DNA of 64,000 bases from a virus (lineage: Duplodnaviria > Heunggongvirae > Uroviricota > Caudoviricetes). Location of the stretch: positions 1 to 64,000 of the IMG/VR virus record IMGVR_UViG_3300005527_000046, one strand, 5' to 3'. Below, in pieces: positions 6,845 through 64,000 of this stretch; positions within the stretch are counted from its first letter, which is position 1; each line of letters starts with the position of its first letter. The notes beneath the pieces were generated by a model, which did no database searches, was not told the DNA's origin, and saw only the letters and a list, made by a program, of their open reading frames with translations. A program made the translations under genes and the position numbers.

Positions 6845-6861
6845 AAACACTATAAATATAA

Positions 6862-45993: not shown

Positions 45994-46036
45994 TATTTGT
46001 GTTGTTTGGTTTATTTGAATATATTATAACATATAT

Positions 46037-49000
46037 TTAGGTATTAATAATTCCATCAATAACTTTAGTTCCTCTCTTTATATTGAACTGTTGTAATGCA
46101 ATTTGTTCACTATCTCTAGAACTTGTTTGTGTAAATTCTAAGGTTGTTTGACCTTTATCTGTTTTTCCTTTAGTAACCTTTGTTGCTGCTTGAATGTTTG
46201 GTGTTCCATCATTTATAAGTTGAATGTGTGGATTAGGTACTATATGACTTCCAACTACATTTAATGCTAAGTTTTTCTTAGTATTAATCTCATTAACATC
46301 ATTAGCCATTTGACCCATCTTAGTACTAACCTCTCCTAACTTAACAATTGCTTCTCTTGTTATAGCGTTTATCTCTGTTGATCCTATAATAGGAGCAGAG
46401 GTTATCTTTCTATTTTCAAGTTCTACAACTCTATTGATCTGACCTTCCCATGCTTGTATTTGTAATCTTTCTGTAACAGACATATATTTAGATACTAATG
46501 CATGATTTAACTTGTCATCCATTCTTGTGTTCCAAAATTGTTTACCTGTTACTAGTTGATTATAAGCTTTACCTCTAATAGCAAATGCAAAGTCCTGAGA
46601 TGGATCAACAGATCCTGGTCCATATCCTTCAGCAGTAGCAGCATATCCAGTCATAGGAGCATCAAAAGATGTAACAAATCTACCAGCAGTCTTTCTGCCA
46701 GTTGGATCATCTAAGGTGTCTATTTGTGCCATCCATTCTTGTTTCATTGCATCATTTACTGTGCCTTGAAATAGAGGATTTCTATAGTCTTTATCCCTAT
46801 ACTTTGTATCATTATATATTTGATTGGCAGGTTTAAATAGATAAGATCCTGGCGCTCCAAACATCTGTGTTGGTAAGTTACTAAGATTAGATGCAAAGTC
46901 ATCTGCTGTCTCAGGACTGTTAAGTATCCAAACAATTTGTACTGCAGTTAATACTAAAGAAGCAACTAAACCCCAAGGTCCTGCTGCTACTCCAGAAATA
47001 GCTTTTAATCCAGCTCCTGCAAATTTTGCACCAGTTACTAATCCTTTAATTGCCATTCCTTGTGCTGTCTTTTGTATTGCAGCGTTTCTTATTGCTGTAC
47101 TAGCACTCTGTATAAGACCTACCTTAGCAACTTGTTCTGTTATCTTAGAAGTGATAGTCTTTGCAACTATAGTTTGTCCAATCTTATTGGCTATAAATGG
47201 AGTTACTAATGTACTACTTAAAGAATCTAATGCCTGTAAACTAGCACCTTCTAATCTGTTATTCTTAGAGTCTAATGAGTGTCCTAAACCAACTCCAAAT
47301 ATTAAAGCACCAATAGCTGCAACTCCCGCATTAATTAGATTGCCTGTCTTTAAGTAGTTAAGAGTTCCTCCAATACCTAAAGCTAAACCTCCAACAATGT
47401 TTATAACTCCACTTTGGTTTTGAATATTTCTTATTACTTGTCTTCCTCCTTGATAAAAGTCATCCATCTTAGAAGTAATATATCCACCCAACTCAGGACT
47501 TAAAGAAGATAGGGATGATCCAGCTAAGTCAAATACACTTCTACCAGCTAAGGTTAAACCAGCTAATCCTATAGAAACTCCCCAAGTTTTACTTGCTTTG
47601 AATAATGCTATAGATGATGCAGCTAAAGTAATACCTACAGCACCAGCAGTAATTCTTCCTCCAGTTCCATTATTCTTAAATAGTAAATCATAGCCAAAGA
47701 AACCAGCAGCTAGTCCTCCTATTCCAGGAATAATACTCTTCTGAATTGACTGATTCATTAATAATGTACCAAAGAATAAAGCCCCCCATATATTGTCAAA
47801 GCTTTCTTTGGCCATTTCTTCTCTGGCCATTTCTTTTTCTCTTTCTCCTGTTTTACTAGAAGCTACACTAGCTGCAGCTCTAAATGTTAATAAGTTAGTA
47901 CTAACAAACATAGCCATTTGATAGCCATTCATTAGTACTGTTCCCATTCTAGATAAACCCTCTAGAAATGTTAAACCTGCAGTAGTCTGTAATGCTTTAG
48001 GTGGCACTCCTACTGGCATACTTCCCTGAAGTCCAGATCTAGTATTTTGTTTTATATCAAGTTCAATAGCTTTTGCAACTTCTTCTTGTAACTCTTTAGT
48101 GGGGACATTAAACATACCTCCACCATATTTTCTTACATTGTCTAATACTTCTTTAGATGCATCTGTTGCTTCTAAAGTCATTCTGGTTATTAGATCTCTG
48201 TTAGTTCCTCCACTAACTATATTTAATAATCTATCAAAGACAGCAGTTAAACCAGTTCTCTTTGTTGAAATGATTGTGGTTAATCTATCTTTAATCTGTT
48301 CTCTAAGATGTAACTTGTTATTAAATCTTTGATCTACTGATACTTTATTAACATAATCTTCATCAATTATTGCTGTGCTGTTTAACTCCCTTCTAACAGA
48401 ATTAGTATAAATATTGTCTGCATCTTGTATAAAAGCTGCTTTAATTCTTTCATCAATAACATCATAGTAACTATCAATAACAATATCAAATTTGGCAGCA
48501 TATACTTCTGTCATAAGATCAATAGAATGTCTCATATTAGGGCTTCTATCTTTGCCAAATATATTGAAACCTCCTCCAAATTTTCCTGCCGCTTTAGATA
48601 TGAATTTATCAGCTTTAGCTTCTAATAAATCATCATAAGTAAAGCCTTTATAATATTTATCTACAAAGTCTGCTTTAGCTATAGGAGTTTTAGATTCAGC
48701 ATTATAAGCATCATATTGACCCTCTAAATAAGCATCAAGAACTTGCTTATTAGTATAATCATCTAATAAGTGTTCTGTTATTTTATGTGTTGTATGATTA
48801 TAAGTTATAGTTTCATCTAGGGTTTCTGAGAACATTACAGATTTAAATTCTCTAGCATGAGTTCTAGCTATTCTGTCATCTCTAGTAGATAATCTAGTTG
48901 TTTGACTTGGTGCTGATCTAGTTTCTAACTCATCATAAAAGTCATTTAATCTTGTTATTTGTTGAGTGTGTGCTTGTCCATAGTTCTTTGAATAGTCTCT

Positions 49001-52000
49001 ATAAGCACTATCAAACTTCATAGATAAAGCTCCACTTAATTCATTGATTTGACTTGTATATTTCTTAGCTTGATGATCTGTTAAGCCTTCAGCTATTGCA
49101 AATACAACTTGTGTTCTTCTTAGTAATAAGAATTTACCTGCCGCCGCTTTTAATTCTTCTGCTTCATATAAATGTTTAGAGAACCACTTTCCTTCATCAA
49201 AGTACTTATGTTGTTGTTCCCATAATAATGTATTGTCTTTTGTTACTTGACCTTGACTGGCTTTAGTGGCAGCAACAACTGATATAGCAGCAGTAACTAA
49301 ACCAAGAGAACCTATTCCAACTGCCATTATAGGCAGCCACATAAATGGTGGAAGAGCTTGAGTTAATCCTTGCAATGAAGATGTGTCTCTAACTTTTGTT
49401 AGAAATTCTCCAGCTCTTTCAAAGAAGCTTTTATTTGAATCATATTGATTTGCTGTTGATTGAATTGCAATTCCTTGCATCTCCATAAAAGCATTTTCAT
49501 TATCACTGTCTTGTATAGACATTTTAGCTGCTATAAAAGGATTAGAGTTAGATGCTAAACCACCTATTTGTTTTACAGTTATTTCACCTCCCATAAAGAA
49601 ATTTTGATTTATCTCTCCTAATCCAGTCTGACTTCCATTGCTTGATATATCTTTTAATGCTTTATAGAACTTACCTTGCATATCTGGTGAAGCTATGTTC
49701 ATATTATTCATTAAGGTATATAAAGCTATGTTTACATTAGTACCATAAGATAATGCTTGTAGTCTCTTATATCTTTGGTTGAGAGACATTGCTAAAGCTT
49801 TATTAGTAGTCATAGCTTCTAATGTATATTTATTAGGAGATGTAAACTTAATTCTATCTTTACCTGATCTTGTTGGTTGGCTATATACAGCAGTAATAAT
49901 GTTAGAAGCAAACTGTCTTAGTTGTGCTTGATTGTGTCCAGCAGCATCATCAATTCCTCTTAAATTAGCAATAATATTCTGTGCTAAGAAACCTTTCTTA
50001 GCTAATTCTTGTAGTCCAAATACAGATGACATACTATACATTGCAGATGAGAAATCTTGTGATGCTGATTGTATTTGGAAATAGTCTCTAAGTCTTACAT
50101 CACTATCATCTGGTCTTATTGTTATACCACCAACAGCCACACCAATAAAGGTATTTGGTGAATTTACAATTATTAAATTACTCAATTGTTTTAGTGAGTT
50201 GTTTATTGCTCCTTTAGTTGTACTGTCTGGATTTATTAAGAATTCACCTTTACTATTATGTAAATTAGGTCCTACTAAACCTTTAGCAATGTCATAAGAA
50301 TGGGCTCTATCATACTTTGTTTGTAGTTTAACAAAGTCTACTACACCTTTTCTAAAGTTTGCCCAAGGTGTGTTGCTGTCTTCATCTGCTCCTATTAAAG
50401 CATCTTGAAAGTCCTTATAACCCATGCCTTGAGATGCCCAATTTAAGCCATGAAATGTTAGTCCAAGTAAGGCTGTAGTTCCGCCTAATCTAGCCCATCT
50501 TTCTATATGAACTCTATTACTAGCAGATCTATTTATACTCATTCCTTTTAACACTGCTGAGGCTGGTTGATTGTTAGCAGGATTACTAAACTTATCTAAC
50601 TCAGCTAATACTGCTGAAGCTTGGTTATTCTTTATAATTGAGTTTAAGTCTGTACCAGCACTTATATCTAAGGACTGTAAACCTTTATAGACATTATTAG
50701 ATCTATTACTTGTTATTTGTTTAATGTTTGAATATGGATCACTTACATTAAAAGCATTTTTGAATATCTTTCCTTGTGCATCTTCTACTGCTTGAATAAT
50801 AGGAGAGTTGCCCATTCCTTCTTCTATTATTATTTGTACTTCTCTTGCTTCCATGTTTAACTTATATGTTTCATACTTTAAGCTTAGAGATTGTATAAAG
50901 CCAATATTCTTCTTTCCTATTGGCACTTGTTGTAGTCTTTCTACAACAGTTAATCTATTCCTAAATCTCTCAACAATTTGTTCAGGATTAATATCTGCAA
51001 AGATTAAACTCTTAGGATTAAAGGATGTAACTCCTGCTGTTAATGCGAATAAGGTTGCACCAAAAGCAACAGTTGTCATTCTTCTTGTATTGTCATATTT
51101 ATCTTCTGTTTGTTTTGTTAAATCTCCAAATGCTATTTCTGGATTTACTTTGCCTGATGTTGGATCTGTTATAAAATGATTCCACAAAGCTCCAACAGCT
51201 AGTAAGCCTAATCCTTTTCCTACTTTATTTTCTAATGTTCCTGTTTGGAATACAGCACTTTGTTTTACAAAGCCTCCAAACTTGCCTAATGTATTTCTAT
51301 ATAAACCTTTAAGACTGTTATTAGAATACATCCAAGCAACTAAAGGATCTATCTTTGTTTTGTCAAATCTTGCACTTGTAATATTTAATTCTGACTCTAA
51401 CATTGCTAGTCTTCTAGAGGCTGCTATTGTACCTTTAGCATAACTAATACCTCCTATAAGAGCAGCTCCTGCCATAATAGAAGCACCTCTTAAAGCAAAG
51501 TTTCCATCTTTATCTTCTTTCTTATTTGTAAAAGGTTGAGATAATGTATTAATAACACTATATAAGTGATTACCAATAGCACCTCCCATAAAGGCACTAA
51601 ATACAACAGGCACAAATGATGTTGATCTTAATCTTAAGCCTGGCATCCTAAAGTCACCAGTTGTTAGATTAAGAGACTGAGCAGCTATATAGAAAGGCAA
51701 TGTAGCAATCCCTAAGAACTTATCTCTGGCAGCCCTTGTTGATTGTGTTATTAAAGATTCAGTGGCAACAACAGTTCCAGTTGATTTAAGTATTTGATGG
51801 TTTCTTCCCCATATTCTATTCCTTACTAAGGTGTTAGATACTCCTATACCAACTCCACTCCATAAGGCTACTTGGCTATAGATGTTATAATAATCTTGTA
51901 AGCTTAAGGAGTCCTTATTCCCTTCATTAAGTATTAGACCAGTTCCTAGATAACCAGTTTTAATGGTTACATTATCAGCACTCTTAGCATTCATTGCAAA

Positions 52001-55000
52001 TGCAATTGGAAAGCTTACATTAATAGGTGCTACTCCAACAGCAGGAGGTCCTTGTAAACCTAAGTTAACAGTTGTATAACTACTACCATTACTATCTACT
52101 ACCTTTTTAATTACACTGTAATATTGAAATATAGGCAGAGGAGATTGTGTAGCAGTTACATATGCAGTGCTACCTTTTTGAGATGATGTAATTGGATTAA
52201 TAATCTTACCTAAAGCTACTGCTAATAAGGCAGCATTAACTTCAAGTGGTGATATAGAATCACTAATAGAAGCTGAACCACCATCTGAGGTTCTAGCTTG
52301 ATCTATTCTTTTATTAACATGTTCTACATAACTTCCAAGTCTAGCTATAGCTGTTTGATTTGTTTCATCTAGTTTTGGCCCATTTATATCACCTTGGAAA
52401 GGGCTTAGTCTGTTCCAATAAGCTATTCCTAATCCTATAAGACTAATTGCTGTAGTTGTAATAGGATTTCTACCAAATAGGTTAGCCGCTCCTTGTAATC
52501 CTTTTAGTAATGTATTACCTAACATACTTGTAACTTTGTAGTTACTATATCCAAGTTTACTACCACTAACCATATGTAATGAGTGAGCCATATTATCTAT
52601 AGTTGTAGTAACACCAAATGCTATGGCAGGAGCAGCTAAAAATGCAGTAGATAAAACAGCAGAACCCATTAAGTTTCTTTCATTGTTAATGGTAGAACTA
52701 ATCACATATCTAGCAGTTTGCATTGCTGCTAAGGTTAAGCCTAAACTAATAGAGAAAGATGTCCAGTTCTTTGCAACTTTAGCATTAAGAGCACTTAGTC
52801 CTGTTATATTTCCATTTTCCCTTACAACATTAAAACTTAATTCTTTACCACTAATTAATTTAACTGTAACTGCATTTTTACCAGCAGACAAAGTTGTAAG
52901 TTCAGCCATAGTTGCAGACTGAACAGCTTGACCATTTACTTCTGCTATATTATCTAATAAAGCTTGTCCAGTAAACATCTTTCCATGTATTTCAGGTGTG
53001 CTAGTAGATGCATGATCATACGCCCATCTAACTATTCCAGCCATTGTAACTAAACTTTGAGTACCTAATACAAAGTTAGCAACATGATCATTAGCACCAG
53101 CCATCTTTACTAATTCAGCAGCAGAGAAGAAGTTAGTGCTTTGTAATTCAATTGATGTGTTAGTTGTTCCTCTATTTAGTTGTATTTGAGCTAAGGTAGA
53201 TGTTAGTAAGGAGGCTCCAGTTGATTGAGCAAACTCTGTTAATACTAATTGAGGTATGAATAAAGCACCAATAATCCACTTAGCAGCAGCTAATTTAGTA
53301 CTAGATATCTTCATACCTACATAACTATTTCCCTTGTCTAAATGGTTTAATAAGAAACCAACACCACCTGAGCTGTGTGTTTTATTAGCATAAGTATATA
53401 AAGCATCGTCTAAAGTTATAGTTCTAAGGCCTACTCTTTTGCTTGATAAAGCTTTCCATTTAGCCTGATATGTTGCTTCATTGTCTAATAATTCTTCCAC
53501 TGATACCGCATCTAATGCATTAGTATTAAACACATCAAAACCTCTAGCAGATCTATTCTTTGCAGAATCTATAGAGTTATTTGTTCTTACTTTTACATTA
53601 TCTTCTAAGTTTATTTCTGCTTGTGAGTATGTTTTACTAATCTTACTAATGTCTTCTAAGTCTCTTTTAGATTGGCCACCTCTAGTATTAAAAGATAATA
53701 TAGATCTGGTCATTGTTGCTATATGATTCATTATTCTGAAGGCAGGATAGGAGGCTTTAGTACCATTCTCACTGAACAACATAAACTCATTAGCTGCGCC
53801 CCAAAAACCTTGATTGTTTAATGATGCATTAACATATCTGGCAAAACCTTCAATGTCTAATAAGTTACCAATCATAGGAGCTGTTACATTGTCTTTTCTG
53901 CCAGCAAATATTCCCCATGCCCAAGGCATAGGGACTAAGTTGATTACTCCTTGTATCTTCTTAGCAAGCATCATGTTTCTTTCTATAGAAACATTGGTTA
54001 TCTTTAATTCATATTGTTTGTTAACTGCATCATTAATCTCCTTAACAACATCAGATGTTGGTTTGATAGTTGCATCATTACCTCTAAGAATATCTATGGC
54101 TCTGGGTATATTAAAAGTTTTACCAGAAGCTGTTGTTATGTTTACTGTGTTCCAATCAATTGATTTGGCTCCACTAGTTATAACTTCTCCAGCTCTATCA
54201 ATAATCTTTATGTCAGCAGGTGATTGTAATACTTCTAGGTAATCATTAGTAGCAGAAATTAAGGCTTTAGATTTATTAGAGCCTAATGTATATGGATTAA
54301 TCTTACTTATTAAGAATTCTCTTGCAGTTGCTGAGAAGAAGAAACCACCTCTTTGTCTTTGATAGTTATCTAAATAATAAAGAGAGAATGTAGGATTATC
54401 TAATGAATAGTAAGCAGTTGTTGCACCCTTAACTTGTCTTTCAATGACAGACATTTTAAAGCCAATATTATCATTGTCTGTTCCTCCTAATGCCCACTTA
54501 GCAGCTTTATTTGTATCAGCAGCTTTAATAAGAGCCTCTTGACTATTAAGTAAAGCTCTAGAAGCCATTGCTTTAAGTGGCTCTCCAACTGCTAGATAAA
54601 CTCCAATAGAGGAGGCGGTAGCCAATACAGTAGCAGCACTATTTGCAAGTAAATCTTGAAAGAAACTTGTCTTAGTTGTAAAGTAATTTTCTCCATCATC
54701 TTTGTAGCTTCTTAGTACTGGATTATTAGTTAAATATGATTGATCAATGAGCGCACCAACTGCACTAAATAGAGAAGGAATTGGTCCTCTTTCTTCTTGT
54801 AATACTCTACCCATACCATTAGGTATAAAGAAGAATTCATTTATTCTACTCATTAATGATGGTGAATTGACAGCAAAATCAAATGCTTTAGCTACTGCTA
54901 CTTCATCTCTTGATAAGTTATTATTAGTCTTACTAGCTCTAAGTATGCCTTCATATGTTCCCATATCTTCAGCATCAACAACAGATGTAAACCTACCTGA

Positions 55001-56323
55001 TGCTCTCATAGAAGCATTATATCTAGCTAATTCAAATTGTTGTGAATGAGTTTTCTTATTACTAATAACTAAACCTCTATATTCCTTATCAGTGTCATAT
55101 AAAGGAGCTAATAAAGGATTGTGTATACCCTTAGCTCTAGCATTAATAACAGCCTTACTCTCAAAACTACTGTTTATATCATCTAAGTTTACATGTAATA
55201 ATCCTTTACCATCTTTAGGCGCATCATATACATTTTGTAATATTTGTTCTTCTACTTCTGGATCTAGATGAGGAAATAACCTTTTCATTCCTGTTAGTTC
55301 TCTAATCTGTCTACCATCTGCAAGTTTATAATCCTTCCAATTATCTTTTACATTTTGACTGTTAGGCATTATAACAGCAATAGTTTTTGTGTCTTTTGTT
55401 ATTGTTGTTTGTCCTGGCTCTAATACAACGGCTACCTTCCATAAAACTTTAGGTACTTCTACTCCATTAATACTCTCAACATAACCATTCTTACCAATAC
55501 CTCCTTTACCAGCACCACCTGTTATAATTTGAATCTCTCTTTCGGTATAACCAAATAAAGGAATGCCAAAAGGTCCTTTACCTTCATGTACTTTATTGTT
55601 TAAATAGTGTTCTAAATCTGCCCAAGGACCTGCATTAACTTCATGTGCTTGTGCTAACATGTTAGTCATTACATATGTAGAAGAGTTAATTCCTACAGTA
55701 CTTGTAAATGCAGCAGAGTTAGCCAAGTGACCTCTATCAAATCCTTTAAATCCTGTAAAGTCAACCTTCTTAAAGTTAGACGGTAGATTTGTATCATTTC
55801 TAAAATCATTCTGTCTACTAACATTACCTAAGTTATTTTTTGTCAGTTTAAAAGCAACCCAATTAGGCCTGCCTTTTTCATTGTTGTAACTAGTAACAAA
55901 TTGAGATCTGCCTTCTACTTTATTTTCTAATATGTAGTTATTACTGTCAGATGTATTAGCTCCCGTTGGATTGCCAATAAGTGATAGATTAGAATTGTTT
56001 TTATAGTTATAGCTGTCATTGCCAATATAACTTTGTTCTACTATTCTTTTATTTGTCTCTACATGTACATCTAAACCAGTTAGATCAAAAGAATAACCAA
56101 CCTTAGGAGCATTTCCATAGCCTCTTAGATAATCATTGTATCTACTTTTATTATCACTAAATGCAGAGAAGTTTCCTACTCTATCCTCAAATAACTTTCC
56201 TTTATATTGCCAATCCCAATTACCTTTGTTATAAGATGATGTTGCATCCTTAATAGCAAATGAGCCATAACCTAAAGTTGTGGCTCCTATTCCAGTGGCA
56301 ATTGCAATATTAAGTAAACTCAT
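46037..56323 (-). CDS. giant virion-associated protein (3428 aa): N-terminal signal peptide + DNA/RNA non-specific endonuclease (His-Me finger, DRGH) domain, long Gly/Ala/Ser/Thr-rich multi-TM tape-measure-like core
   Basis: Uninterrupted 10.3-kb ORF; N-terminus MSLLNIAIATGIGATTLGYGSFA; FKGFDRGHLANSAAF...N...GPWADLE matches the Serratia-nuclease (Endonuclease_NS) active-site region; many hydrophobic G/A-rich segments; sits next to terL. Confidence 0.7.
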   Translation of the reverse strand: MSLLNIAIATGIGATTLGYGSFAIKDATSSYNKGNWDWQYKGKLFEDRVGNFSAFSDNKSRYNDYLRGYGNAPKVGYSFDLTGLDVHVETNKRIVEQSYIGNDSYNYKNNSNLSLIGNPTGANTSDSNNYILENKVEGRSQFVTSYNNEKGRPNWVAFKLTKNNLGNVSRQNDFRNDTNLPSNFKKVDFTGFKGFDRGHLANSAAFTSTVGINSSTYVMTNMLAQAHEVNAGPWADLEHYLNNKVHEGKGPFGIPLFGYTEREIQIITGGAGKGGIGKNGYVESINGVEVPKVLWKVAVVLEPGQTTITKDTKTIAVIMPNSQNVKDNWKDYKLADGRQIRELTGMKRLFPHLDPEVEEQILQNVYDAPKDGKGLLHVNLDDINSSFESKAVINARAKGIHNPLLAPLYDTDKEYRGLVISNKKTHSQQFELARYNASMRASGRFTSVVDAEDMGTYEGILRASKTNNNLSRDEVAVAKAFDFAVNSPSLMSRINEFFFIPNGMGRVLQEERGPIPSLFSAVGALIDQSYLTNNPVLRSYKDDGENYFTTKTSFFQDLLANSAATVLATASSIGVYLAVGEPLKAMASRALLNSQEALIKAADTNKAAKWALGGTDNDNIGFKMSVIERQVKGATTAYYSLDNPTFSLYYLDNYQRQRGGFFFSATAREFLISKINPYTLGSNKSKALISATNDYLEVLQSPADIKIIDRAGEVITSGAKSIDWNTVNITTASGKTFNIPRAIDILRGNDATIKPTSDVVKEINDAVNKQYELKITNVSIERNMMLAKKIQGVINLVPMPWAWGIFAGRKDNVTAPMIGNLLDIEGFARYVNASLNNQGFWGAANEFMLFSENGTKASYPAFRIMNHIATMTRSILSFNTRGGQSKRDLEDISKISKTYSQAEINLEDNVKVRTNNSIDSAKNRSARGFDVFNTNALDAVSVEELLDNEATYQAKWKALSSKRVGLRTITLDDALYTYANKTHSSGGVGFLLNHLDKGNSYVGMKISSTKLAAAKWIIGALFIPQLVLTEFAQSTGASLLTSTLAQIQLNRGTTNTSIELQSTNFFSAAELVKMAGANDHVANFVLGTQSLVTMAGIVRWAYDHASTSTPEIHGKMFTGQALLDNIAEVNGQAVQSATMAELTTLSAGKNAVTVKLISGKELSFNVVRENGNITGLSALNAKVAKNWTSFSISLGLTLAAMQTARYVISSTINNERNLMGSAVLSTAFLAAPAIAFGVTTTIDNMAHSLHMVSGSKLGYSNYKVTSMLGNTLLKGLQGAANLFGRNPITTTAISLIGLGIAYWNRLSPFQGDINGPKLDETNQTAIARLGSYVEHVNKRIDQARTSDGGSASISDSISPLEVNAALLAVALGKIINPITSSQKGSTAYVTATQSPLPIFQYYSVIKKVVDSNGSSYTTVNLGLQGPPAVGVAPINVSFPIAFAMNAKSADNVTIKTGYLGTGLILNEGNKDSLSLQDYYNIYSQVALWSGVGIGVSNTLVRNRIWGRNHQILKSTGTVVATESLITQSTRAARDKFLGIATLPFYIAAQSLNLTTGDFRMPGLRLRSTSFVPVVFSAFMGGAIGNHLYSVINTLSQPFTNKKEDKDGNFALRGASIMAGAALIGGISYAKGTIAASRRLAMLESELNITSARFDKTKIDPLVAWMYSNNSLKGLYRNTLGKFGGFVKQSAVFQTGTLENKVGKGLGLLAVGALWNHFITDPTSGKVNPEIAFGDLTKQTEDKYDNTRRMTTVAFGATLFALTAGVTSFNPKSLIFADINPEQIVERFRNRLTVVERLQQVPIGKKNIGFIQSLSLKYETYKLNMEAREVQIIIEEGMGNSPIIQAVEDAQGKIFKNAFNVSDPYSNIKQITSNRSNNVYKGLQSLDISAGTDLNSIIKNNQASAVLAELDKFSNPANNQPASAVLKGMSINRSASNRVHIERWARLGGTTALLGLTFHGLNWASQGMGYKDFQDALIGADEDSNTPWANFRKGVVDFVKLQTKYDRAHSYDIAKGLVGPNLHNSKGEFLINPDSTTKGAINNSLKQLSNLIIVNSPNTFIGVAVGGITIRPDDSDVRLRDYFQIQSASQDFSSAMYSMSSVFGLQELAKKGFLAQNIIANLRGIDDAAGHNQAQLRQFASNIITAVYSQPTRSGKDRIKFTSPNKYTLEAMTTNKALAMSLNQRYKRLQALSYGTNVNIALYTLMNNMNIASPDMQGKFYKALKDISSNGSQTGLGEINQNFFMGGEITVKQIGGLASNSNPFIAAKMSIQDSDNENAFMEMQGIAIQSTANQYDSNKSFFERAGEFLTKVRDTSSLQGLTQALPPFMWLPIMAVGIGSLGLVTAAISVVAATKASQGQVTKDNTLLWEQQHKYFDEGKWFSKHLYEAEELKAAAGKFLLLRRTQVVFAIAEGLTDHQAKKYTSQINELSGALSMKFDSAYRDYSKNYGQAHTQQITRLNDFYDELETRSAPSQTTRLSTRDDRIARTHAREFKSVMFSETLDETITYNHTTHKITEHLLDDYTNKQVLDAYLEGQYDAYNAESKTPIAKADFVDKYYKGFTYDDLLEAKADKFISKAAGKFGGGFNIFGKDRSPNMRHSIDLMTEVYAAKFDIVIDSYYDVIDERIKAAFIQDADNIYTNSVRRELNSTAIIDEDYVNKVSVDQRFNNKLHLREQIKDRLTTIISTKRTGLTAVFDRLLNIVSGGTNRDLITRMTLEATDASKEVLDNVRKYGGGMFNVPTKELQEEVAKAIELDIKQNTRSGLQGSMPVGVPPKALQTTAGLTFLEGLSRMGTVLMNGYQMAMFVSTNLLTFRAAASVASSKTGEREKEMAREEMAKESFDNIWGALFFGTLLMNQSIQKSIIPGIGGLAAGFFGYDLLFKNNGTGGRITAGAVGITLAASSIALFKASKTWGVSIGLAGLTLAGRSVFDLAGSSLSSLSPELGGYITSKMDDFYQGGRQVIRNIQNQSGVINIVGGLALGIGGTLNYLKTGNLINAGVAAIGALIFGVGLGHSLDSKNNRLEGASLQALDSLSSTLVTPFIANKIGQTIVAKTITSKITEQVAKVGLIQSASTAIRNAAIQKTAQGMAIKGLVTGAKFAGAGLKAISGVAAGPWGLVASLVLTAVQIVWILNSPETADDFASNLSNLPTQMFGAPGSYLFKPANQIYNDTKYRDKDYRNPLFQGTVNDAMKQEWMAQIDTLDDPTGRKTAGRFVTSFDAPMTGYAATAEGYGPGSVDPSQDFAFAIRGKAYNQLVTGKQFWNTRMDDKLNHALVSKYMSVTERLQIQAWEGQINRVVELENRKITSAPIIGSTEINAITREAIVKLGEVSTKMGQMANDVNEINTKKNLALNVVGSHIVPNPHIQLINDGTPNIQAATKVTKGKTDKGQTTLEFTQTSSRDSEQIALQQFNIKRGTKVIDGIINT

Positions 56324-56334
56324 TTTTTTATTAG

Positions 56335-57162
56335 TTAGAAAGAAGAAACAGTATTTTGTAAGAATGAACTATTATTAATATAAATGTTCTGAGGAAATAA
56401 ACTATTCTTAAATAGTATTTGTTTAATATCAACTGGCTTTACATAGTTAATTGTAAACACTTGGCCCAGAGGAACATTAGTTGTTAGAAGAGTATCAGTT
56501 GTATTTTTATAGTTTATTGCTGCTTGTATAAGTGCATGTTCTGTTAGAGTTGTATCTACTGTAATAGTGTTACTAATTGAATATGTAACTGGATTTACAG
56601 TTGGAGATGTAACAGTATATAGTACATGTATATCAGGATGATCTAATAAGGATATGGGCGCTCCAGTAGATGTTAGAGATAAGCTTAAAGACTTGAAAGA
56701 TCTTGATAAATTTAAGTATTGATAATTTACTAAATATCTATTAGATGGATGTGGTATTAACCAATACTCAGTCTTTAATAGTCTATGTCTTAGTGGTGGT
56801 CTTTTATATGATTTAGGAAATATCATAGGCTGCCATTCCCAGTATTCAACAATATAACAAGAGCCTTCTCCCCATCCAACTGTAGGTTGTAACCCTACTC
56901 TTATTTGATTTTTATATATGCCTTCCCAAGGAATATTATAAACAAAGGTTCTAGGAATATACTCAGTATCATTTCTAATAGATGTTGGTGGTTTTATTTT
57001 TAAGTAATATCTAGGGGCTAATTTTATTGGTTTAGTTACTAGATTTAATATGTTATCAGTTGTTAATGGTGTTTGTAGTGTGCCTACTGGAATAGGAATG
57101 ATAGGGTCTACTGATTCTTCTATAAATTCCTCTACTGTAAATATAACTGGTGTCTTAATCAT
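56335..57162 (-). CDS. hypothetical virion protein
   Basis: ORF track; abuts terL. Confidence 0.5.
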   Translation of the reverse strand: MIKTPVIFTVEEFIEESVDPIIPIPVGTLQTPLTTDNILNLVTKPIKLAPRYYLKIKPPTSIRNDTEYIPRTFVYNIPWEGIYKNQIRVGLQPTVGWGEGSCYIVEYWEWQPMIFPKSYKRPPLRHRLLKTEYWLIPHPSNRYLVNYQYLNLSRSFKSLSLSLTSTGAPISLLDHPDIHVLYTVTSPTVNPVTYSISNTITVDTTLTEHALIQAAINYKNTTDTLLTTNVPLGQVFTINYVKPVDIKQILFKNSLFPQNIYINNSSFLQNTVSSF

Positions 57163-59349
57163 TTAATAGCCTCTATATGTATTTCTTTCTTTATGTTGCT
57201 GTAATCTATTTATAGAGCTTCCTACAGTTATTTTTCTAGGAGTATTAATATTAATAAGTTTAGGAGCTTTTAGTTCAATCTTATTAATTAGATTACAATT
57301 AGAACCATATGTATAAGCTTCAAATACTGATACTGCTAATGCATCTGGTAAGTCCTTTGTACCATATGGGTGAACTATTTGACCATTATCTTTAATAACT
57401 AAAGAAGGTAAATCTGTTTTTATAAGAGCTGTCCAAGGACTATCAATAGGAAATAATACATCTCCTCTTTGTATTAATTGTCTTAATAAGTTGTAGTAAG
57501 CTAATTGTTTTTCTCTAGAGAATGAAACAATTTTAGTATTAAGTCCTCTACTATATAAGTTTTGATTGAGAGAAGAAGAGTTAAAACCATCAAATGATAT
57601 AGACATGATGTTCATATATTGGCTTATATATATTAGTATTTCTTCTATATTTATATAAGATACTTCTCTAAATTTACCCTTCTCATCAATGCCTGGTGTC
57701 CAACATGCAATGCCAATAACTTCTATTTGTCCTCTATTATTAATAGTAGCTATAGACATAGCAGTAGCATCTTTCTTTAAACTTGTATCTACATGTATAA
57801 AACAAGCTGTATTTACATTAGATATTCTATTGATTTTAATGCCTCTATAATGTCTATCTTCTATGTCTAAGTTATATTCCATTACATCTATTGAAGACTG
57901 TAAAGAACATAATTTATCTAATAAATCAGCTTCTAGAAAGGAATTATCATTACTGCTTCTTATATTTTCATATTCTAATCTTGCTCTTTTAGGTTCTGAA
58001 GAATAATCAGATATAATGTCTGGATTACTTCTAGTTATAGTAGGATTAACATCAAAACAAGTTAGTTCTAATATAAGCGAGTAAGGGTCACCAGCAGCTT
58101 GATGTTTTAATGTTACCATTGGATCTGTAAAAGACCATGCAGAAGATACTACTATTTTTTTACCTTCTCCTTTGAATCTGTTGAGTGCGCGGCCCACATT
58201 TTGATAAATGTTAAGTCCTGTGTTTAAACCATCACCAGTAGTTTCAAAACGAGCCATTTCATCTATAAATAATAACTTTAAGTTATATCCTACAAGTGCT
58301 TTTGAATTTGTATGCTTAGCATAAAGAGATATAAATTTATCAGGACATCTAATCTCATCACTAAGTACTACTATTTTCTTCTTTTTAATCAGGGATTTAA
58401 AAAAGTTAGAACTATCAAGAAATGATTTAATAGCTTTGAAACTAGTTTCTAATACTTGTGCTTCTGTTTGTGCTATAGCAAAAAGGGCAATTGGAGAGAA
58501 TGACATTAGACCATAATGTAAACCTGGATCAGGCAATGAAATTAATTTGTAAAATTCATATAGACAAATAATAGAACTCATTGATGATTTACTGCTGTTA
58601 TGACTAACAATAGAATTGCCTATTATATGAGTGTCTTCTACTTCAAATCCAATAATGTTTTTATATCCAATAGCTTTAACTTTAACTACTTCTTCCCATT
58701 CAATAACATACTCTGTGTTGGAAGAGGCAAATGTTAAATTGTTTAATACAGCTACTTTATCTTTCTTATTTAAGTCTTTTATTTGTATCCAACAAGGGCC
58801 AAATGCAGTTTTTACTAAGTAAGGATGATCACTTGTTACTTCCTCTGTTTTACCTGATTTAAGTGTAATACTATAAGCTTTTTGTAAGCCCTGATCCCAT
58901 GTTCTAAATTTGTTAGTTGTAAATACTTTATAAGTTATTGAATCAACTGTATAAATGTATATATCTTCATCTTTTCTCTCATGCAATTCTTTATATGTAA
59001 TAGTGCCAACAGAGGTAATTATGTTAGAAGTTTCTACTGGGCAGCCACGTCCTGCTTCTAGTATTAAGTTTGTATACTTTCTTCCATTGATCCAATTAGT
59101 CTTTCCTTGTTCTCTCCATCTGTCTAATATATCTATATGTACTTGATCTAGTGGCTCATTATAGATGGCTTTTAATATTGCCTCTTGTGTGGGCCATAGC
59201 TTCGTTGTAGAGTCATTAAATAGTATTGAATTAGCAAAGGTAACAATGTCTATATTGCTACCTTGTGGAGTGTTTATTGAGGCTTCTGTGAGATCTGTTA
59301 ATAGATCATTTAAGAAGTCTTTAGTTGTATAATCTGCTTGTGGTCGCAT
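57163..59349 (-). CDS. terL: terminase large subunit, interrupted by a mini-intein in the ATPase P-loop region
   Basis: Walker B KLLFIDEMARF; C-terminal RNaseH-like nuclease region IHVDTSLKKDATAMSIATINNRGQIEVIGIACW; extein junction LILEAGRG / SSKSS forms the P-loop. Confidence 0.75.
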   Translation of the reverse strand: MRPQADYTTKDFLNDLLTDLTEASINTPQGSNIDIVTFANSILFNDSTTKLWPTQEAILKAIYNEPLDQVHIDILDRWREQGKTNWINGRKYTNLILEAGRGCPVETSNIITSVGTITYKELHERKDEDIYIYTVDSITYKVFTTNKFRTWDQGLQKAYSITLKSGKTEEVTSDHPYLVKTAFGPCWIQIKDLNKKDKVAVLNNLTFASSNTEYVIEWEEVVKVKAIGYKNIIGFEVEDTHIIGNSIVSHNSSKSSMSSIICLYEFYKLISLPDPGLHYGLMSFSPIALFAIAQTEAQVLETSFKAIKSFLDSSNFFKSLIKKKKIVVLSDEIRCPDKFISLYAKHTNSKALVGYNLKLLFIDEMARFETTGDGLNTGLNIYQNVGRALNRFKGEGKKIVVSSAWSFTDPMVTLKHQAAGDPYSLILELTCFDVNPTITRSNPDIISDYSSEPKRARLEYENIRSSNDNSFLEADLLDKLCSLQSSIDVMEYNLDIEDRHYRGIKINRISNVNTACFIHVDTSLKKDATAMSIATINNRGQIEVIGIACWTPGIDEKGKFREVSYINIEEILIYISQYMNIMSISFDGFNSSSLNQNLYSRGLNTKIVSFSREKQLAYYNLLRQLIQRGDVLFPIDSPWTALIKTDLPSLVIKDNGQIVHPYGTKDLPDALAVSVFEAYTYGSNCNLINKIELKAPKLININTPRKITVGSSINRLQQHKERNTYRGY
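58597..59043 (-). other. mini-intein (149 aa, Hint domain only) within terL
   Basis: Begins with Cys (CPVETSNIIT, block A), TxxH block B (VTSDHPY), ends NIIGFEVEDTHIIGNSIVSHN followed by +1 Ser. Confidence 0.6.
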
Positions 59350-59357
59350 GTTGTTTT

Positions 59358-60062
59358 TTATATTGTAATAAATAAATCTAATTCATTTTTTATAGTAGAT
59401 ATAGAATTCCCTGTTAGTTTTGCTGCTTGTGCTTTTGTATAATTAGTAGGACAAACTAATAAGAAGTAATCATTTACAACTTTAGTTCTAGTGTTACTTG
59501 TATTAAATTGTACGGGTCCTAATGCTGTTCTTATAAATAGGTAAAATGCAAAAGTAGGCTGTATTACTTCAATTACTCCAGCTTCAATTTCAATCAATGA
59601 AGATGGCTCAACAGGTTCAGATGTATAACTATAGTAAATTGATTGTTGCGTTGTATTGTTTATATTTATAGTACTTTTTTGAGGAGTATTTATAAATATC
59701 TGTTCCTCTATAAAAGGAGTTGTTACAGCATTCTTAGACACAAACAACATATAAGTAGATACTTCATTCTTCAAATATGCTATAAATGTTCCATATTTAA
59801 AAAGGGATTCAGTAGCAGTAAATATATCTGGAGTATTATTAGTTGCTAATACATTGCCGCATAAATCAAACACTTTGTAAGGCCCGTAGAACCCTTCAAT
59901 TGAAGGTGAAAGAGGATTAACATAGTATGTTTTATTGGGGTATGTACAGAAGGTAAATCTATCTTGCTCAGATAATACTGTCCAATTAAAATCTATATCT
60001 TGTATTACCTCAGATACTTCTGTATATGTATTAAATGATTGCTTAACTATTTCTCTAGCCAT
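59358..60062 (-). CDS. hypothetical structural-module protein
   Basis: ORF track. Confidence 0.5.
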   Translation of the reverse strand: MAREIVKQSFNTYTEVSEVIQDIDFNWTVLSEQDRFTFCTYPNKTYYVNPLSPSIEGFYGPYKVFDLCGNVLATNNTPDIFTATESLFKYGTFIAYLKNEVSTYMLFVSKNAVTTPFIEEQIFINTPQKSTININNTTQQSIYYSYTSEPVEPSSLIEIEAGVIEVIQPTFAFYLFIRTALGPVQFNTSNTRTKVVNDYFLLVCPTNYTKAQAAKLTGNSISTIKNELDLFITI

Positions 60063-60526
60063 TAGCCACTTCCAAGTTTTATATTAAATGTATAATCTAA
60101 TGTTGCTGGTGGATTTAGTGTAATTGGTGTATTAGAAATTGGCTTTACAAGTAATGGTATGCCTTGTACATTTCCTCTGTTGTTAAAGTTTATTTCTGTT
60201 GCTCCTGTTACTAAAGCTTTATATACATAACATATATGTGTTGCATTAACTATTGCTGTTGTGAATGATACTGGTGCTTCTATTGTTGCAAATATTTGAT
60301 CTCCAATTGTTTCTTCTACTAATAAAAGGGGTGGGAATATAAATCTTTTATATGTTCCTGTTAGTTCATACTTGACTATATCTTCCATTTTTATTGCATC
60401 TAATGCTTGAAGCTGAGATAGGTTTGGTGTGGTTCCTCCATATATAGGTGCATTAATAAGTATAGCAACTGCATCAGTTGTTACTTGAGTTATAATGTCT
60501 TTTCTTGATTCTAATGTATATCTCAT
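60062..60526 (-). CDS. hypothetical structural-module protein
   Basis: ORF track. Confidence 0.5.
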   Translation of the reverse strand: MRYTLESRKDIITQVTTDAVAILINAPIYGGTTPNLSQLQALDAIKMEDIVKYELTGTYKRFIFPPLLLVEETIGDQIFATIEAPVSFTTAIVNATHICYVYKALVTGATEINFNNRGNVQGIPLLVKPISNTPITLNPPATLDYTFNIKLGSG

Positions 60527-60527
60527 G

Positions 60528-60953
60528 TTAGTCCGTTGTTAATAATAAGTTTGCATCATCTAAATTAGTTAGTTTTATACCTATATATTGATTAGTTAAA
60601 TCTGTTTCTAATATTAAATTAGAGGACTTAGTTGGTGTTTTAAATGTAGGTGTTGGAGGATATATTGATTGAAATAATATATCTGTATTAAATTGTTTAT
60701 ATATAAATAGTATAGTATTGGTTGGAGTATAACTAACTCCATAATATCTCCCTTCATAGTTTGGATCTTCATATGTATATCCTGAATAACAAGGATCTTG
60801 TACTACTGGTAATGTAATTGGATACAAGTTATATAAAGTTGGCGGGCGGTAAGAAAGCCAACTAGTATTAAAATAATAGAACTGTTTAAAGTCCTCAGAA
60901 ATAAATCCAGAATATTCAACATCATTATCTATTTGATTATTATAAAAATTCAT
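60528..60953 (-). CDS. hypothetical structural-module protein (Y/T/P-rich)
   Basis: ORF track. Confidence 0.45.
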   Translation of the reverse strand: MNFYNNQIDNDVEYSGFISEDFKQFYYFNTSWLSYRPPTLYNLYPITLPVVQDPCYSGYTYEDPNYEGRYYGVSYTPTNTILFIYKQFNTDILFQSIYPPTPTFKTPTKSSNLILETDLTNQYIGIKLTNLDDANLLLTTD

Positions 60954-62298
60954 TGTTGACTCTTCTTTTTAATGTAAAACTTGAGTTAGTTGTGTCGTTT
61001 GGCACTAGATATACAAGACTTCCAGTCTTTGTTGTAAAAGCTAAGTAAGCTTTTGTTGGAGGATAACTTCCTGTTGGTTGAGGAATGTCTACTTTATTAT
61101 CAAATTTATATTCACTACTAATAGAAGAGTTAGTAACATAAGGTGCTAAATCACTTGATTTTATAACTCCTTCATTCTTAGTTAATATTTTTGTTATATT
61201 TAATCCTGCAGGACTATTACCTAAATTATCATTAACTATTTCATAATTTCTTGATATAGAAGTTGGAGTAACTGGAACAGGAGTAGAATTTAATATATTG
61301 TTAACTGAATTAGAAAAGTTAGTGCTTGGTGTAAAAGAAGGACTAGATTTAAAATCAGTTTTATCTGCTTTTAGTCTATCAAGGAGATTTGATAGACCTG
61401 TTGGTTGATAATAACTATTTGCTCTAACTATAGCCTCTCCTACTTGAGCTTCTGTTGGATTAGAGTTGCTAGGTAAGAATCCTTTTTCTTTAAGTAAGTC
61501 TTTATATATATTTTTATTTGCTGTAGATAATTTATTATATTCTAAAACTAATGCATCTCCTTTACAGGGATTTGTACTAGGTGTTGTTGTAGTTGGTGTG
61601 GCTGGTTTAGCACTCTTACATTGATTAGTTCCAAGATCTATAATCTCAAATTTAATCATGTAATAGTTTCTATCTTGTCTTACATATACAAGTTCAAATT
61701 CTTTAACATAGCCTTTAAACTTAATGTTAGAACTACTATCTCTAAAGGTTGTGGACTCACTTTTCTTAGGTATAAAAGAACCATCAGATGTGGCTATGTT
61801 AACTTCTATAAGAGCTTTATTTTTAACTGCAAAGTCATAAAACTCACAGGCAGGTGTATAACTATCTTGCCCTTCTTTTACAGTTAAATCCTGCCATCCT
61901 TCCCATTTAGCTGCATCAGATAAGTTTGATATACCATCATATCCAGTAAACATTCCAGATAAGGATACTGTTAATGATTCAACTCCTAAATGTTGATAGA
62001 TAGGAAAAAAGCCAGGAATCTTTAATTTAGATATGGCAATTCCTGCTTTTATTAGTAAGCCGGGCAATTGTATTGGATTACTTCTACCAGGATGTTTAGA
62101 CTCAATAGATGGCGGTAATAACATATTAAATGTTTTACCATTGGCTATCATCTTTACTTTATATACAGATGTTTGTGCGCCAGCAGCAGCATTAACTATA
62201 TTAGATTGTGCTACTTTAGCTGGCATAAATAAAGGACTATTAACAGTTCCAGTCTGAGGTAATGCTCTACCAGCAACAAGTATAGGACTATCTGACAT
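60940..62298 (-). CDS. hypothetical virion protein with Pro/Thr linker (PATPTTTTPSTNP)
   Basis: ORF track. Confidence 0.5.
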   Translation of the reverse strand: MSDSPILVAGRALPQTGTVNSPLFMPAKVAQSNIVNAAAGAQTSVYKVKMIANGKTFNMLLPPSIESKHPGRSNPIQLPGLLIKAGIAISKLKIPGFFPIYQHLGVESLTVSLSGMFTGYDGISNLSDAAKWEGWQDLTVKEGQDSYTPACEFYDFAVKNKALIEVNIATSDGSFIPKKSESTTFRDSSSNIKFKGYVKEFELVYVRQDRNYYMIKFEIIDLGTNQCKSAKPATPTTTTPSTNPCKGDALVLEYNKLSTANKNIYKDLLKEKGFLPSNSNPTEAQVGEAIVRANSYYQPTGLSNLLDRLKADKTDFKSSPSFTPSTNFSNSVNNILNSTPVPVTPTSISRNYEIVNDNLGNSPAGLNITKILTKNEGVIKSSDLAPYVTNSSISSEYKFDNKVDIPQPTGSYPPTKAYLAFTTKTGSLVYLVPNDTTNSSFTLKRRVNNEFL

Positions 62299-63568
62299 AT
62301 GATTTATATCCTTTTACTATAGGTTTGTTATTAGATTCTGTACTTAAATCAATTCTAATTGTGAGATAGTTTCTTGTTGCATCAGTTATTTTTCCTTCTC
62401 TATTTATAATAGATACAATTTCAGTTAAATTTTTATCATATAAATATCTATAGGTTTGATCATTGCCATCTACTAAATATCTAGAGGGATTTGTTAGTTC
62501 TTCCCATGTATATCCTTCATTAGATGATAGATAAACACTAACTGCCGTTGAATCTAATATAATTGCATCTAGTTCTAAATATATATTAGAGTACTTAAAG
62601 TTTGTTCTTATTGTCTTAGATATATAAGTAGATAGTGTTTTATTACTGCTAATAAGAACTGGATATACATAAGCATATTTGTTGATATTAAATATCAAGT
62701 CTACTGAATCTGTTTTGTTTATCTCAGCTTCATTGGTATATTCAATGTTGTTTATATTGAATTTGCCAGGATAATAAATGTGCTCAAATCTGTCAATATT
62801 ATCATTAACTGTAATTGTATTTGTAACACTAGCTGTGGCATAGATTGCAGTATTTAGTTTAAACTTTAAATCTTTATTTAGTTGAGTTGTTATGTTAGTT
62901 TGATTTGCATCTAAGGAGAATAAATAAGAATTGGCTAAAGTAGATGTAGTAGATATAAATATATCTGTTGGAGAATTTATAGAAGAAATAAGGAGGCTGT
63001 ATCTTCCTTTTGACAAAGTTATTGGAACATCCCATGTGAAATCTGTAGATGTTTTACCATCTACACTTGTAGTGATTTGATTGTTGTTAACTACTGCCTG
63101 TGCAACGACTTCTTGAGGCTTATCATTAAACTTAGTTAACAATATCTTAATAAGAGGAGTAGCAGAGTTTACTTTTCTAATGTAAATACTACCTCCAACT
63201 AAAGTTGTATTGTCTTCTTCTATGTTAATGGTTTGTCCTACATAACTAGTATCTATAGGATAATTAGAATTATATAAGGATGATGTTGCTGAGGAGCTAT
63301 TATTCTGAACTGTTATAACATCATTTAAAGATGAATTAGAAGGAAGTGTAAATGAAAAAGAAGCCTCTCCTTTAGCATTAGTTGTTATAATAGTTGAAAT
63401 TAATTTATCTCCTATTGTTAGTCTAAAGTCAGAAGAATTTGGAGTTAAGCCGTATGCTTGAGCATTTACAATAGTTTGAGTTAATATTATTTCTCTATCA
63501 CTAAGTCTTTGATATATACTAGTGTCTAATCTAGTTGGTCCAACTATTAACACACCTTTTTTAGTCAA
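62288..63568 (-). CDS. hypothetical virion protein (S/T/N-rich, beta-rich), TTG start
   Basis: ORF track; start codon TTG at 63566-63568. Confidence 0.5.
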   Translation of the reverse strand: MTKKGVLIVGPTRLDTSIYQRLSDREIILTQTIVNAQAYGLTPNSSDFRLTIGDKLISTIITTNAKGEASFSFTLPSNSSLNDVITVQNNSSSATSSLYNSNYPIDTSYVGQTINIEEDNTTLVGGSIYIRKVNSATPLIKILLTKFNDKPQEVVAQAVVNNNQITTSVDGKTSTDFTWDVPITLSKGRYSLLISSINSPTDIFISTTSTLANSYLFSLDANQTNITTQLNKDLKFKLNTAIYATASVTNTITVNDNIDRFEHIYYPGKFNINNIEYTNEAEINKTDSVDLIFNINKYAYVYPVLISSNKTLSTYISKTIRTNFKYSNIYLELDAIILDSTAVSVYLSSNEGYTWEELTNPSRYLVDGNDQTYRYLYDKNLTEIVSIINREGKITDATRNYLTIRIDLSTESNNKPIVKGYKSYVR

Positions 63569-63569
63569 G

Positions 63570-64000
63570 CCAATTGTTACAAAGGAGTCTGAAACTTGCT
63601 GAGATATATACTCTTTAGAAGTATATTCCTGTATTATTACATTTGGAGCGCCGTTTATTATTTTTGTATTTGTATCTACATTATTAATAAAAACATCTTT
63701 AGTTATTCTACTAAACTTGTTTAATATTAGATTTCCTTGTTCTATATCACAGTCAAATAATGGATGGTTTATATCAGCATTATCTGTGTTATTAAAAGTA
63801 TCTGTTATTAAGTTGGAAGTTGTATCAATAGGTTTTAGTAAAGTTGTTTCTAATAAGTAATCTCTAAGCTTATTTAAATTGCCCTCCAGTAGTAAAATAT
63901 CTTTGTTTTTTATCTGTTTATTTTGTAATGCTGGAATCCAAGTACTTTGTTTGTATGTACCAATTTCTAAGTCATTTATTGGATCTAATTTAGTTTTTGG
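63570..64000 (-). CDS. possible 3' part of a further minus-strand structural gene running off the window end
   Basis: Gene-dense minus-strand block continues to the window edge; not verified codon by codon. Confidence 0.25.

Follow-up and report, generated by a model that had tools for sequence, protein, structure and literature searches.

A probable class 1 mini-intein in the Walker A loop of the terminase large subunit of an uncultivated freshwater phage

The gene for the terminase large subunit (TerL) in a 64,000-nucleotide stretch of phage DNA (positions 1 to 64,000 of the IMG/VR virus record IMGVR_UViG_3300005527_000046, Caudoviricetes; referred to below as the window) carries an in-frame insertion of 149 codons. 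This raises the question whether the insert is an intein that restores the terminase by splicing, a remnant that has lost this ability, or a domain of another kind. The analysis indicates that it is very probably a self-splicing class 1 mini-intein in the Walker A motif of TerL (AGRG|SSKS), descended from a LAGLIDADG intein and vertically inherited in an uncultivated freshwater phage of low GC content. The insert is a genuine feature with clean boundaries, and judged from its sequence the element is almost certainly functional.

The TerL precursor is encoded at 57163..59349 (-) by an uninterrupted open reading frame (ORF) of 728 amino acids plus stop; all coordinates given within this gene refer to the minus strand. 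Alignment with intein-free homologues delimited an N-extein of amino acids 1-102 (59044..59349), which ends in LILEAGRG. The mini-intein comprises amino acids 103-251 of the precursor (58597..59043), and the C-extein, amino acids 252-728 (57166..58596), contains the remainder of the ATPase domain and an RNase-H-like nuclease domain. The initial annotation had placed a 149-amino-acid insertion here, and residues 103-251 mapped to its coordinates correctly to the base. The start CPVETSNIIT, the VTSDHPY block, and the end IVSHN followed by Ser, on which the intein call had been based, were all read in the sequence at their positions. The GC content of the insert is 29.5%, compared with 30.0% for the TerL gene and 29.5% for the window. 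The opposite strand holds just two ORFs of 63 amino acids at this gene, which we take to be AT-rich noise. Public sources name the 728-amino-acid product "hypothetical protein".

The nature of the insert was assessed by profile searches in which the 149 amino acids were scanned alone. Pfam Intein_splicing (PF14890) matched with E = 3.8e-8, and the NCBIfam model TIGR01445 (intein_Nterm, the N-terminal splicing region) matched with 28.6 bits, above its cut-off of 24.5. A hidden Markov model (HMM) search for intein domains had been proposed as a check, and these two matches, one just below and one above the curated cut-off, speak for the assignment. The insert also matched the intein portions of NCBIfam models for intein-containing DnaB, RtcB, and PolII. 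Its best sequence matches in the PDB were the RadA mini-intein of Pyrococcus horikoshii (Pho), with E = 2.5e-5, and the DnaB mini-intein of Synechocystis (Ssp). AlphaFold2, run on an alignment of 11 sequences, gave an all-beta model with a predicted local distance difference test (pLDDT) value of 90.9 and a predicted template modeling (pTM) score of 0.82. When this model was compared with the PDB using Foldseek, 1mi8 (Ssp DnaB), 4o1r (Npu DnaB), and 3ifj (Mtu RecA) came out on top, with TM scores of 0.78-0.82 and E values of about 1e-8 (best 1.3e-8). Among the Foldseek matches listed, those named as inteins were inteins or HINT domains of Hedgehog or bacterial intein-like (BIL) proteins. The insert is thereby predicted to adopt the HINT fold.

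No endonuclease family (LAGLIDADG, HNH, or other nuclease) was matched within the 149 amino acids in the profile scans. The insert is a mini-intein, with no homing-endonuclease domain between blocks B and F, and the earlier proposal of an intein lacking this domain agrees with the combination of intein profile matches and the missing endonuclease match. A search of the window with a family-intein HMM returned the TerL intein as the sole intein. The second match was a free-standing LAGLIDADG ORF, which was presumably found through the endonuclease part of the model.

The splicing blocks were located by alignment to characterized and related inteins. Block A, CPVETSNIITSVG (59005..59043), starts at Cys1 (TGC, 59041..59043), the predicted nucleophile for the N-S acyl shift, which stands directly after Gly-1 and is invariant in related P-loop inteins. 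Block B, GKTEEVTSDHPYLV (58813..58854), was matched by alignment to the corresponding block of the Pho RadA and Ssp DnaB inteins and contains the TSDH motif (58825..58836) with intein residues Thr70 (B:7) and His73 (B:10); His73 and Pro74 are invariant in the alignment of related inteins. In a MAFFT alignment with two longer homologues, P0004 (429 amino acids) and P0005 (340 amino acids), the segment LNNLTFASSNTEYV (58705..58746) is a linker, the scar at the place where the related inteins carry a LAGLIDADG endonuclease domain. It is also the block of lowest pLDDT in the intein model (73 for residues 101-110). Block F, IIGFEVEDTHIIGNSI (58609..58656), was defined by HMMER alignments to Pho RadA and Ssp DnaB. 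In the related inteins its Glu134 and Thr138 are invariant and His139 is nearly invariant. Block G ends with the penultimate His148 and the terminal, succinimide-forming Asn149 (58597..58602), both invariant in related inteins. The codon for the +1 residue of the C-extein lies at 58594..58596; this residue is Ser in the inteins at the window's site, except in P0003, where it is Thr. On sequence grounds, the catalytic inventory for a class 1 intein is complete, with Cys1, Thr70, His73, His139, His148, Asn149, and Ser+1. A class 3 assignment, which is based on a Trp/Cys/Thr (WCT) triplet at B:12, F:4, and G:5 and usually goes with the lack of a nucleophile at position 1, was considered and rejected, as the insert has Tyr at B:12, Gly at F:4, Ser at G:5, and Cys1.

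The identification of the host protein as a terminase large subunit, also made in the initial annotation, was confirmed by PHROG matches, by about 40% identity to the terminase of Microcystis phage Ma-LMM01, and by the predicted fold. PHROG "terminase large subunit" families matched the precursor with E = 1.6e-16 and the conceptually spliced sequence with E = 1.9e-11, and the matches fall within the C-extein. Ma-LMM01 with its relatives and Microcoleus phage My-WqHQDG are the nearest deposited phages; their TerL proteins share about 40% identity with that of the window, and the Ma-LMM01 protein, gp118, carries the annotation terminase. A sequence search of the PDB found no solved structure for the spliced extein or for a 17-sequence profile of intein-free relatives, so that the identity of TerL rests on the PHROGs, the annotated phage homologues, and the fold comparison. 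A scan of the spliced extein against the local copy of Pfam returned no family; the public database tags TerL with PF27249 (MJ0330_N), which is newer than the copy scanned. The fold was modeled on P0010, an intein-free allele that shares 90% identity with the spliced product of the window, using 27 relatives (pLDDT 83.3). The top 10 Foldseek matches of this model were all large terminases, with HK97 first (E = 1e-17), followed by PhiV-1, T4 gp17, Sf6 gp2, D6E, and T7. Its C-terminal domain matched the nuclease domains of the G20c and P74-26 terminases with TMt values of 0.68-0.75. The Walker B motif of the ATPase domain (LLFIDE, 58258..58275) includes an Asp-Glu pair that is invariant in the family (D215 and E216 of P0010). 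The host protein is a phage large terminase, with an ASCE ATPase carrying Walker A and B motifs and an RNase-H-like nuclease. A megablast search of window positions 44000..64000 against phage GenBank records gave no match, and the phage is therefore not a deposited isolate.

The insert divides the Walker A motif into two halves. The N-terminal half, A99-G100-R101-G102 (59044..59055), was defined by alignment with intein-free homologues and ends with Gly102, the -1 residue. The C-terminal half, S252-S253-K254-S255 (58585..58596), begins with Ser252, the putative +1 nucleophile, and contains Lys254, which is identified as the Walker lysine by the conservation of Lys and Ser and by the start of a helix. 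Each of 27 intein-free relatives has the Walker Lys and Ser (K106 and S107 of P0010). The P0010 model has a strand at residues 95-100, a loop at 101-105, and a helix at 106-122 that starts at the invariant Lys-Ser. In this model the site shows canonical P-loop geometry between β1 and α1, and the intein would sit in mid-loop, two residues before the Walker lysine. What had been described as a P-loop-like segment after removal of the insert thus corresponds to the Walker A loop between this strand and this helix.

The comparison with intein-free terminases confirmed the boundaries of the element. Exactly these 149 amino acids are absent from Ma-LMM01, My-WqHQDG, and 27 other intein-free relatives, which shows that they are not a native subdomain. 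In a three-way alignment, the homologues read EAGRRGSKS or ECGRRGGKS where the window reads EAGRG|...|SSKS. The junction of the intein-free P0010, LILEAGRG-SSKSSMSS, is at the protein level the same as that predicted after splicing, which bears out the earlier statement that removal joins LILEAGRG to SSKSS. Between P0010 and the window, 75 of the 90 flanking nucleotides are identical. The insertion is in frame, lies within a conserved motif, and is absent from orthologues, and its removal restores the motif, as is characteristic of class 1.

These data also bear on the possibility that the insert is not an intein but a native TerL subdomain or a cleavage-only BIL HINT domain. HINT domains do occur outside inteins, and Hedgehog 1at0 and BIL 2lwy appear lower in the Foldseek list. 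However, the insert is absent from most homologues and has a precise junction, and it combines Cys1, His-Asn, and Ser+1 with a position in the most conserved motif of an essential enzyme. The elements most closely related to it are canonical LAGLIDADG inteins. BIL domains are found in variable regions of non-essential proteins and usually lack a +1 nucleophile. The location in a conserved motif of an essential enzyme, Ser+1, and the precise intein-free alleles led us to reject a BIL domain. The alignment of presence and absence effectively refutes a non-intein insertion of either kind, which is left with next to no probability.

To place the mini-intein among its relatives, the precursor was searched against 5.8 billion proteins, which yielded 45 relatives, and long insertions were mapped onto an intein-free reference. 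In P0002 and P0003, the site used in the window (GRG|S/T) is occupied by 149-amino-acid mini-inteins that share 87% identity with the window intein. The mini-intein of P0015, also 149 amino acids long and at the same site, is 60% identical, whereas the TerL exteins share only 36% identity, which points to horizontal spread. In P0004, whose exteins are 95% identical to those of the window, this site is occupied by a 429-amino-acid intein with two LAGLIDADG motifs. Full-length LAGLIDADG inteins were also found at GRG|SSKS in P0046 and P0047, and the 340-amino-acid intein of P0005 at the window's site has kept only one LAGLIDADG half. The endonuclease domain of these sister alleles comprises about 280 amino acids (Pfam PF14528), and in the window a 14-residue linker takes its place. 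The window intein is collinear with the first 105 residues of the P0004 and P0005 inteins (63% identity) and also aligns, with 65% identity, to the C-terminal 37 residues of the P0005 intein. The inteins of P0004, P0046, and P0047, and the decayed one of P0005, thus share with the window an identical site and homologous splicing blocks (63-65% amino acid identity) but differ in that the endonuclease was kept there and lost in the window. Because relatives at the same site carry either the 429-amino-acid LAGLIDADG intein or its 340-amino-acid, half-decayed form, we regard the window intein as an endonuclease-deleted derivative.

Seven close relatives (P0006 and P0008-P0013), with 85-94% extein identity, are intein-free, and the flanking genes are identical in kind at intein-free, mini-intein, and full-intein loci. 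This one site displays all stages of the homing cycle: empty, occupied by an intein with an active-looking endonuclease, occupied by one with a decaying endonuclease, and occupied by a mini-intein. In an exhaustive phmmer search of 1.84 billion representatives, only 164 relatives reached E <= 1e-3. Most of these matches were broken into an N-terminal and a C-terminal stretch, which is the pattern expected of endonuclease-bearing inteins.

The empty alleles differ at the position that follows the insertion site. It is Ala in P0006, P0008, P0009, and P0011 (GRGATKSS or GRAATKSS; GRGATKSS in P0006) and in P0012 (GRGASKSS). Residues compatible with splicing are found in P0010 (Ser, GRGSSKSS) and P0013 (Thr, GRGTSKSS). 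Splicing requires Ser, Thr, or Cys at the +1 position. Invasion of the Ala+1 alleles would need co-conversion of the flank, or such alleles may resist homing.

Several observations weigh against a functional class 1 intein. The Pfam PF14890 score of 33.7 bits lies slightly below the gathering threshold of 35.8 bits. At the +1 position the nucleophile is Ser, and Cys generally reacts faster there. Protein splicing of the precursor, with its chemistry and efficiency, is deduced here from the sequence. The survey for terminases covered this window only; the genome measures roughly 230-260 kb and could conceivably encode a second one outside it. A further point is block F:4, where Gly (Ala in some relatives) replaces the Asp usual in standard inteins; in the HMMER alignments, Gly132 stands opposite the Asp of Pho RadA (ydlvipeth) and of Ssp DnaB (vfdltvpgph). 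According to Tori et al., F:4 is "usually Asp" in standard inteins and Trp or Cys in other functional classes (PMC2807308), and in several inteins examined so far the Asp is important at both splice junctions (PMC2807308). Asp at F:4 is a typical feature of class 1 and not an obligatory one. As Gly or Ala is found at F:4 throughout the related intein clade, including alleles with intact endonucleases, the Gly is considered a trait of the clade and not a sign of decay. It is a deviation from the standard class, not an exclusion.

The unusual F:4 residue, the loss of the homing endonuclease, and the deduced status of splicing could also be accommodated by a decayed, splicing-dead remnant, in which case TerL would be a pseudogene or yield an inactive product in a defective or helper-dependent element. 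We consider this very improbable. Every junction residue is intact, the ORF has no interruption, and Gly or Ala occurs at F:4 across the clade even where the endonuclease is intact. Moreover, the identical precursor protein was found on at least 24 contigs, some of them longer than 200 kb.

The pattern of substitutions also argues against a dead remnant. Among the window, P0002, and P0003, the ratio of nonsynonymous to synonymous substitution rates (dN/dS) was 0.058-0.096 for the mini-intein and 0.078-0.115 for the C-extein, while dS was similar for both, at 0.6-1.2. Over a dS of about 1, these values indicate that the intein has long been inherited with its host gene under purifying selection as strong as that on the exteins. 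Such selection is expected if failed splicing kills the terminase, and the agreement between intein and exteins suggests that splicing has been maintained.

Traces of recombination were detected at the same position when the window was compared with a P0004-type locus (L006) over 59044..60200 on the upstream side and 57163..58596 on the downstream side. Nucleotide identity was at least 97% over at least 840 nucleotides upstream, until about 60 nucleotides from the insertion point. Beyond this it was about 80%, and the inteins are 69-77% identical. The sharp drop in identity suggests a recombination breakpoint at the intein site and may stem from a recombination or gene-conversion event centred on the homing site. 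Such breakpoints are expected around the targets of homing endonucleases (compare PMC10448857).

From the position of the insert in the P-loop, the 728-amino-acid precursor, its ATP-binding loop split by the HINT domain, would be unable to bind ATP or to assemble; Kelley et al. drew the corresponding conclusion for the TerL inteins of mycobacteriophages (PMC5050341). The proposed splicing pathway follows established intein biochemistry, as do the steps proposed for the persistence of the element. Cys1 would undergo an N-S acyl shift at Gly102-Cys103, aided by Thr70 and His73 of block B. The resulting thioester would be attacked by the hydroxyl of Ser+1, and this transesterification would give a branched ester. 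Cyclization of Asn149 with the help of His148 would then release the intein, and an O-N shift would form the Gly-Ser peptide bond and restore the P-loop AGRGSSKS. Lacking an endonuclease, the element would not be able to home or to spread alone. It would persist because precise deletion is rare and imprecise deletion lethal, and splicing competence would be kept because the terminase is essential. Recombination during co-infection by a relative might still mobilize it.

The inactive state of the precursor expected from the P-loop position also invites the idea that the functional intein was co-opted as a conditional switch, for example one responsive to redox state or temperature, which would delay the terminase ATPase until late infection. 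The intein was retained under selection after loss of the endonuclease, and the window, P0002, and P0003 share a second cysteine, Cys84, within a GPCW motif. For TerL inteins, earlier work has suggested regulatory roles (PMC5050341; PMC7156551). However, Cys84 is absent from P0015, P0004, and P0005, many close relatives are intein-free, and the purifying selection is fully explained by the fact that an intein, after its fixation, has to splice. A switch is very improbable. More broadly, we consider it very unlikely that the intein is more than a stranded selfish element and has been kept as a post-translational timer or sensor of terminase activation, for example by redox control through Cys1 and the lineage-specific Cys84, or that its clade coordinates the two junctions in a variant manner through Gly or Ala at F:4 and the invariant Glu at F:6.

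The element was compared with known systems. The mini-inteins of Ssp DnaB, Npu DnaB, and Mtu RecA resemble it in their HINT horseshoe, Cys1, TxxH, and His-Asn, a length of about 140-155 amino acids, and the lack of an endonuclease. They differ in that they share only about 20% sequence identity with it, are engineered or natural, reside in DnaB or RecA instead of TerL, and have Asp at F:4. Pho RadA (2lqm, 4e2t), the best sequence match among solved structures, is a natural mini-intein in the ATPase domain of its host protein. Unlike the window intein, it is archaeal, is hosted by a recombinase, and has Asp at F:4.

The closest functional parallels come from phage terminases. TerL is the commonest intein host in mycobacteriophages, with about 40% of their inteins (PMC5050341), and there it has two Walker A insertion sites one residue apart; reporter assays showed efficient splicing for several of these inteins, and the endonucleases of some are active (PMC5050341). 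The statement in the initial annotation that inteins commonly target terminase P-loops is documented by this work of Kelley et al. (2016), who also reported that mycobacteriophage TerL precursors with a P-loop intein need splicing for ATPase function (PMC5050341). Class 3 inteins were noted early in the P-loops of phage terminases (PMC2807308). Like the window intein, TerL1-a and TerL1-b of mycobacteriophages lie in Walker A, are sporadic among related phages, and occur with or without a homing endonuclease (PMC5050341). In contrast, the window TerL belongs to a PF27249/Ma-LMM01-like family and the mycobacteriophage TerL1 systems to Terminase_1. The window site is G|SSK, two residues before the Walker Lys, compared with the "classic" Lys|Thr of TerL1-a. 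The window intein comes from an uncultivated freshwater phage of 29% GC, with contigs of up to about 230-257 kb, which differs from mycobacteriophages in hosts and habitat. The phmmer search of 1.84 billion representatives found no close sequence relationship between the window intein and mycobacteriophage TerL inteins. Cyanophage Mic1 is likewise a freshwater phage with inteins in TerL, one with and one without an endonuclease domain; it has two, in the ATPase and nuclease domains, where the window has one, and the TerL lineages differ (PMC7156551).

Inteins in the TerL P-loop were thus already known from mycobacteriophages and Mic1, and the window element adds a lineage, a site, a source, and Gly at F:4. 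To the specialist it is unsurprising, a textbook situation. Its population context neatly illustrates, in nature and among uncultivated freshwater phages, how an intein passes through the homing cycle, and the allele set and intein density of the TerL family are richer than the element, itself ordinary. Annotation as TerL with a mini-intein is to be preferred for a 728-amino-acid product that otherwise looks like a hypothetical protein, and the insert also disturbs terminase-based phylogenies and HMM searches. As a compact 149-amino-acid Cys1/Ser+1 mini-intein from a mesophilic phage, it could be of minor interest as a protein-engineering part.

At least five intein sites were observed in the TerL family, three of them adjacent in the P-loop (G|SSK, G/A|SK, and K|S). 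This diversity concerns the related proteins P0007, P0014, P0016-P0020, P0023, P0024, P0027, P0030, and P0031. A further site follows NIGRG in the ATPase domain (P0007 and P0027, the latter from Calothrix sp. FACHB-1219), and another follows FDGFN in the nuclease domain (P0014). In P0019, P0024, P0030, and P0031, mini-inteins of 145-197 amino acids occupy the same P-loop; they have a Trp/Cys/Thr triplet, start with Ala1 or Pro1, and appear to be class 3 inteins. P0049 (1446 amino acids) contains two full LAGLIDADG inteins only two extein residues apart within Walker A (GRGG|intein|SK|intein|ST). In P0052 and P0060, a P-loop intein is accompanied by another one located elsewhere (NVG(K)G|C...HN|S/T). 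A TerL 79% identical to that of the window, with a half-decayed LAGLIDADG intein, was found on a 56-kb contig from Lake Mendota (L010, JBIKWN010000122.1) labeled "MAG: Bdellovibrionota bacterium", where MAG stands for metagenome-assembled genome. It was the only match in a genome collection. The contig probably derives from a phage and was assigned to the bacterial MAG by a binning error, and its source indicates a freshwater-lake habitat for the phage group.

Elsewhere in the window, the free-standing LAGLIDADG homing endonuclease gene at 25049..26005 (+) encodes 318 amino acids with N-terminal helix-turn-helix domains and matched the Pfam family LAGLIDADG_3 with 54.5 bits. It was considered as the lost endonuclease of the intein and rejected, as it showed no significant BLASTP similarity to the endonuclease of the P0004 intein. 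It is followed by a gene for a Pnkp-like protein (26286..28628 (+)) with kinase, metallophosphatase, and PNKP ligase domains and, close to the latter, a Hen1 homologue (29200..30408 (+)) with Hen1_N and methyltransferase domains. The two resemble an RNA repair pair of the Pnkp/Hen1 type, here encoded by a phage. The window also contains four tRNA genes (4176..11396). Further genes encode a DNA photolyase (18129..19346 (+)), a protein with a PARP catalytic domain (40980..42164 (+)), and a PD-(D/E)XK nuclease (44935..45993 (-)). One gene downstream of TerL, a giant ORF of 3428 amino acids (46037..56323 (-)) has as its sole Pfam match an N-terminal DNA/RNA non-specific endonuclease domain (residues 133-345). 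A similarly placed giant gene is present in Ma-LMM01, in My-WqHQDG, and at the P0015 locus.

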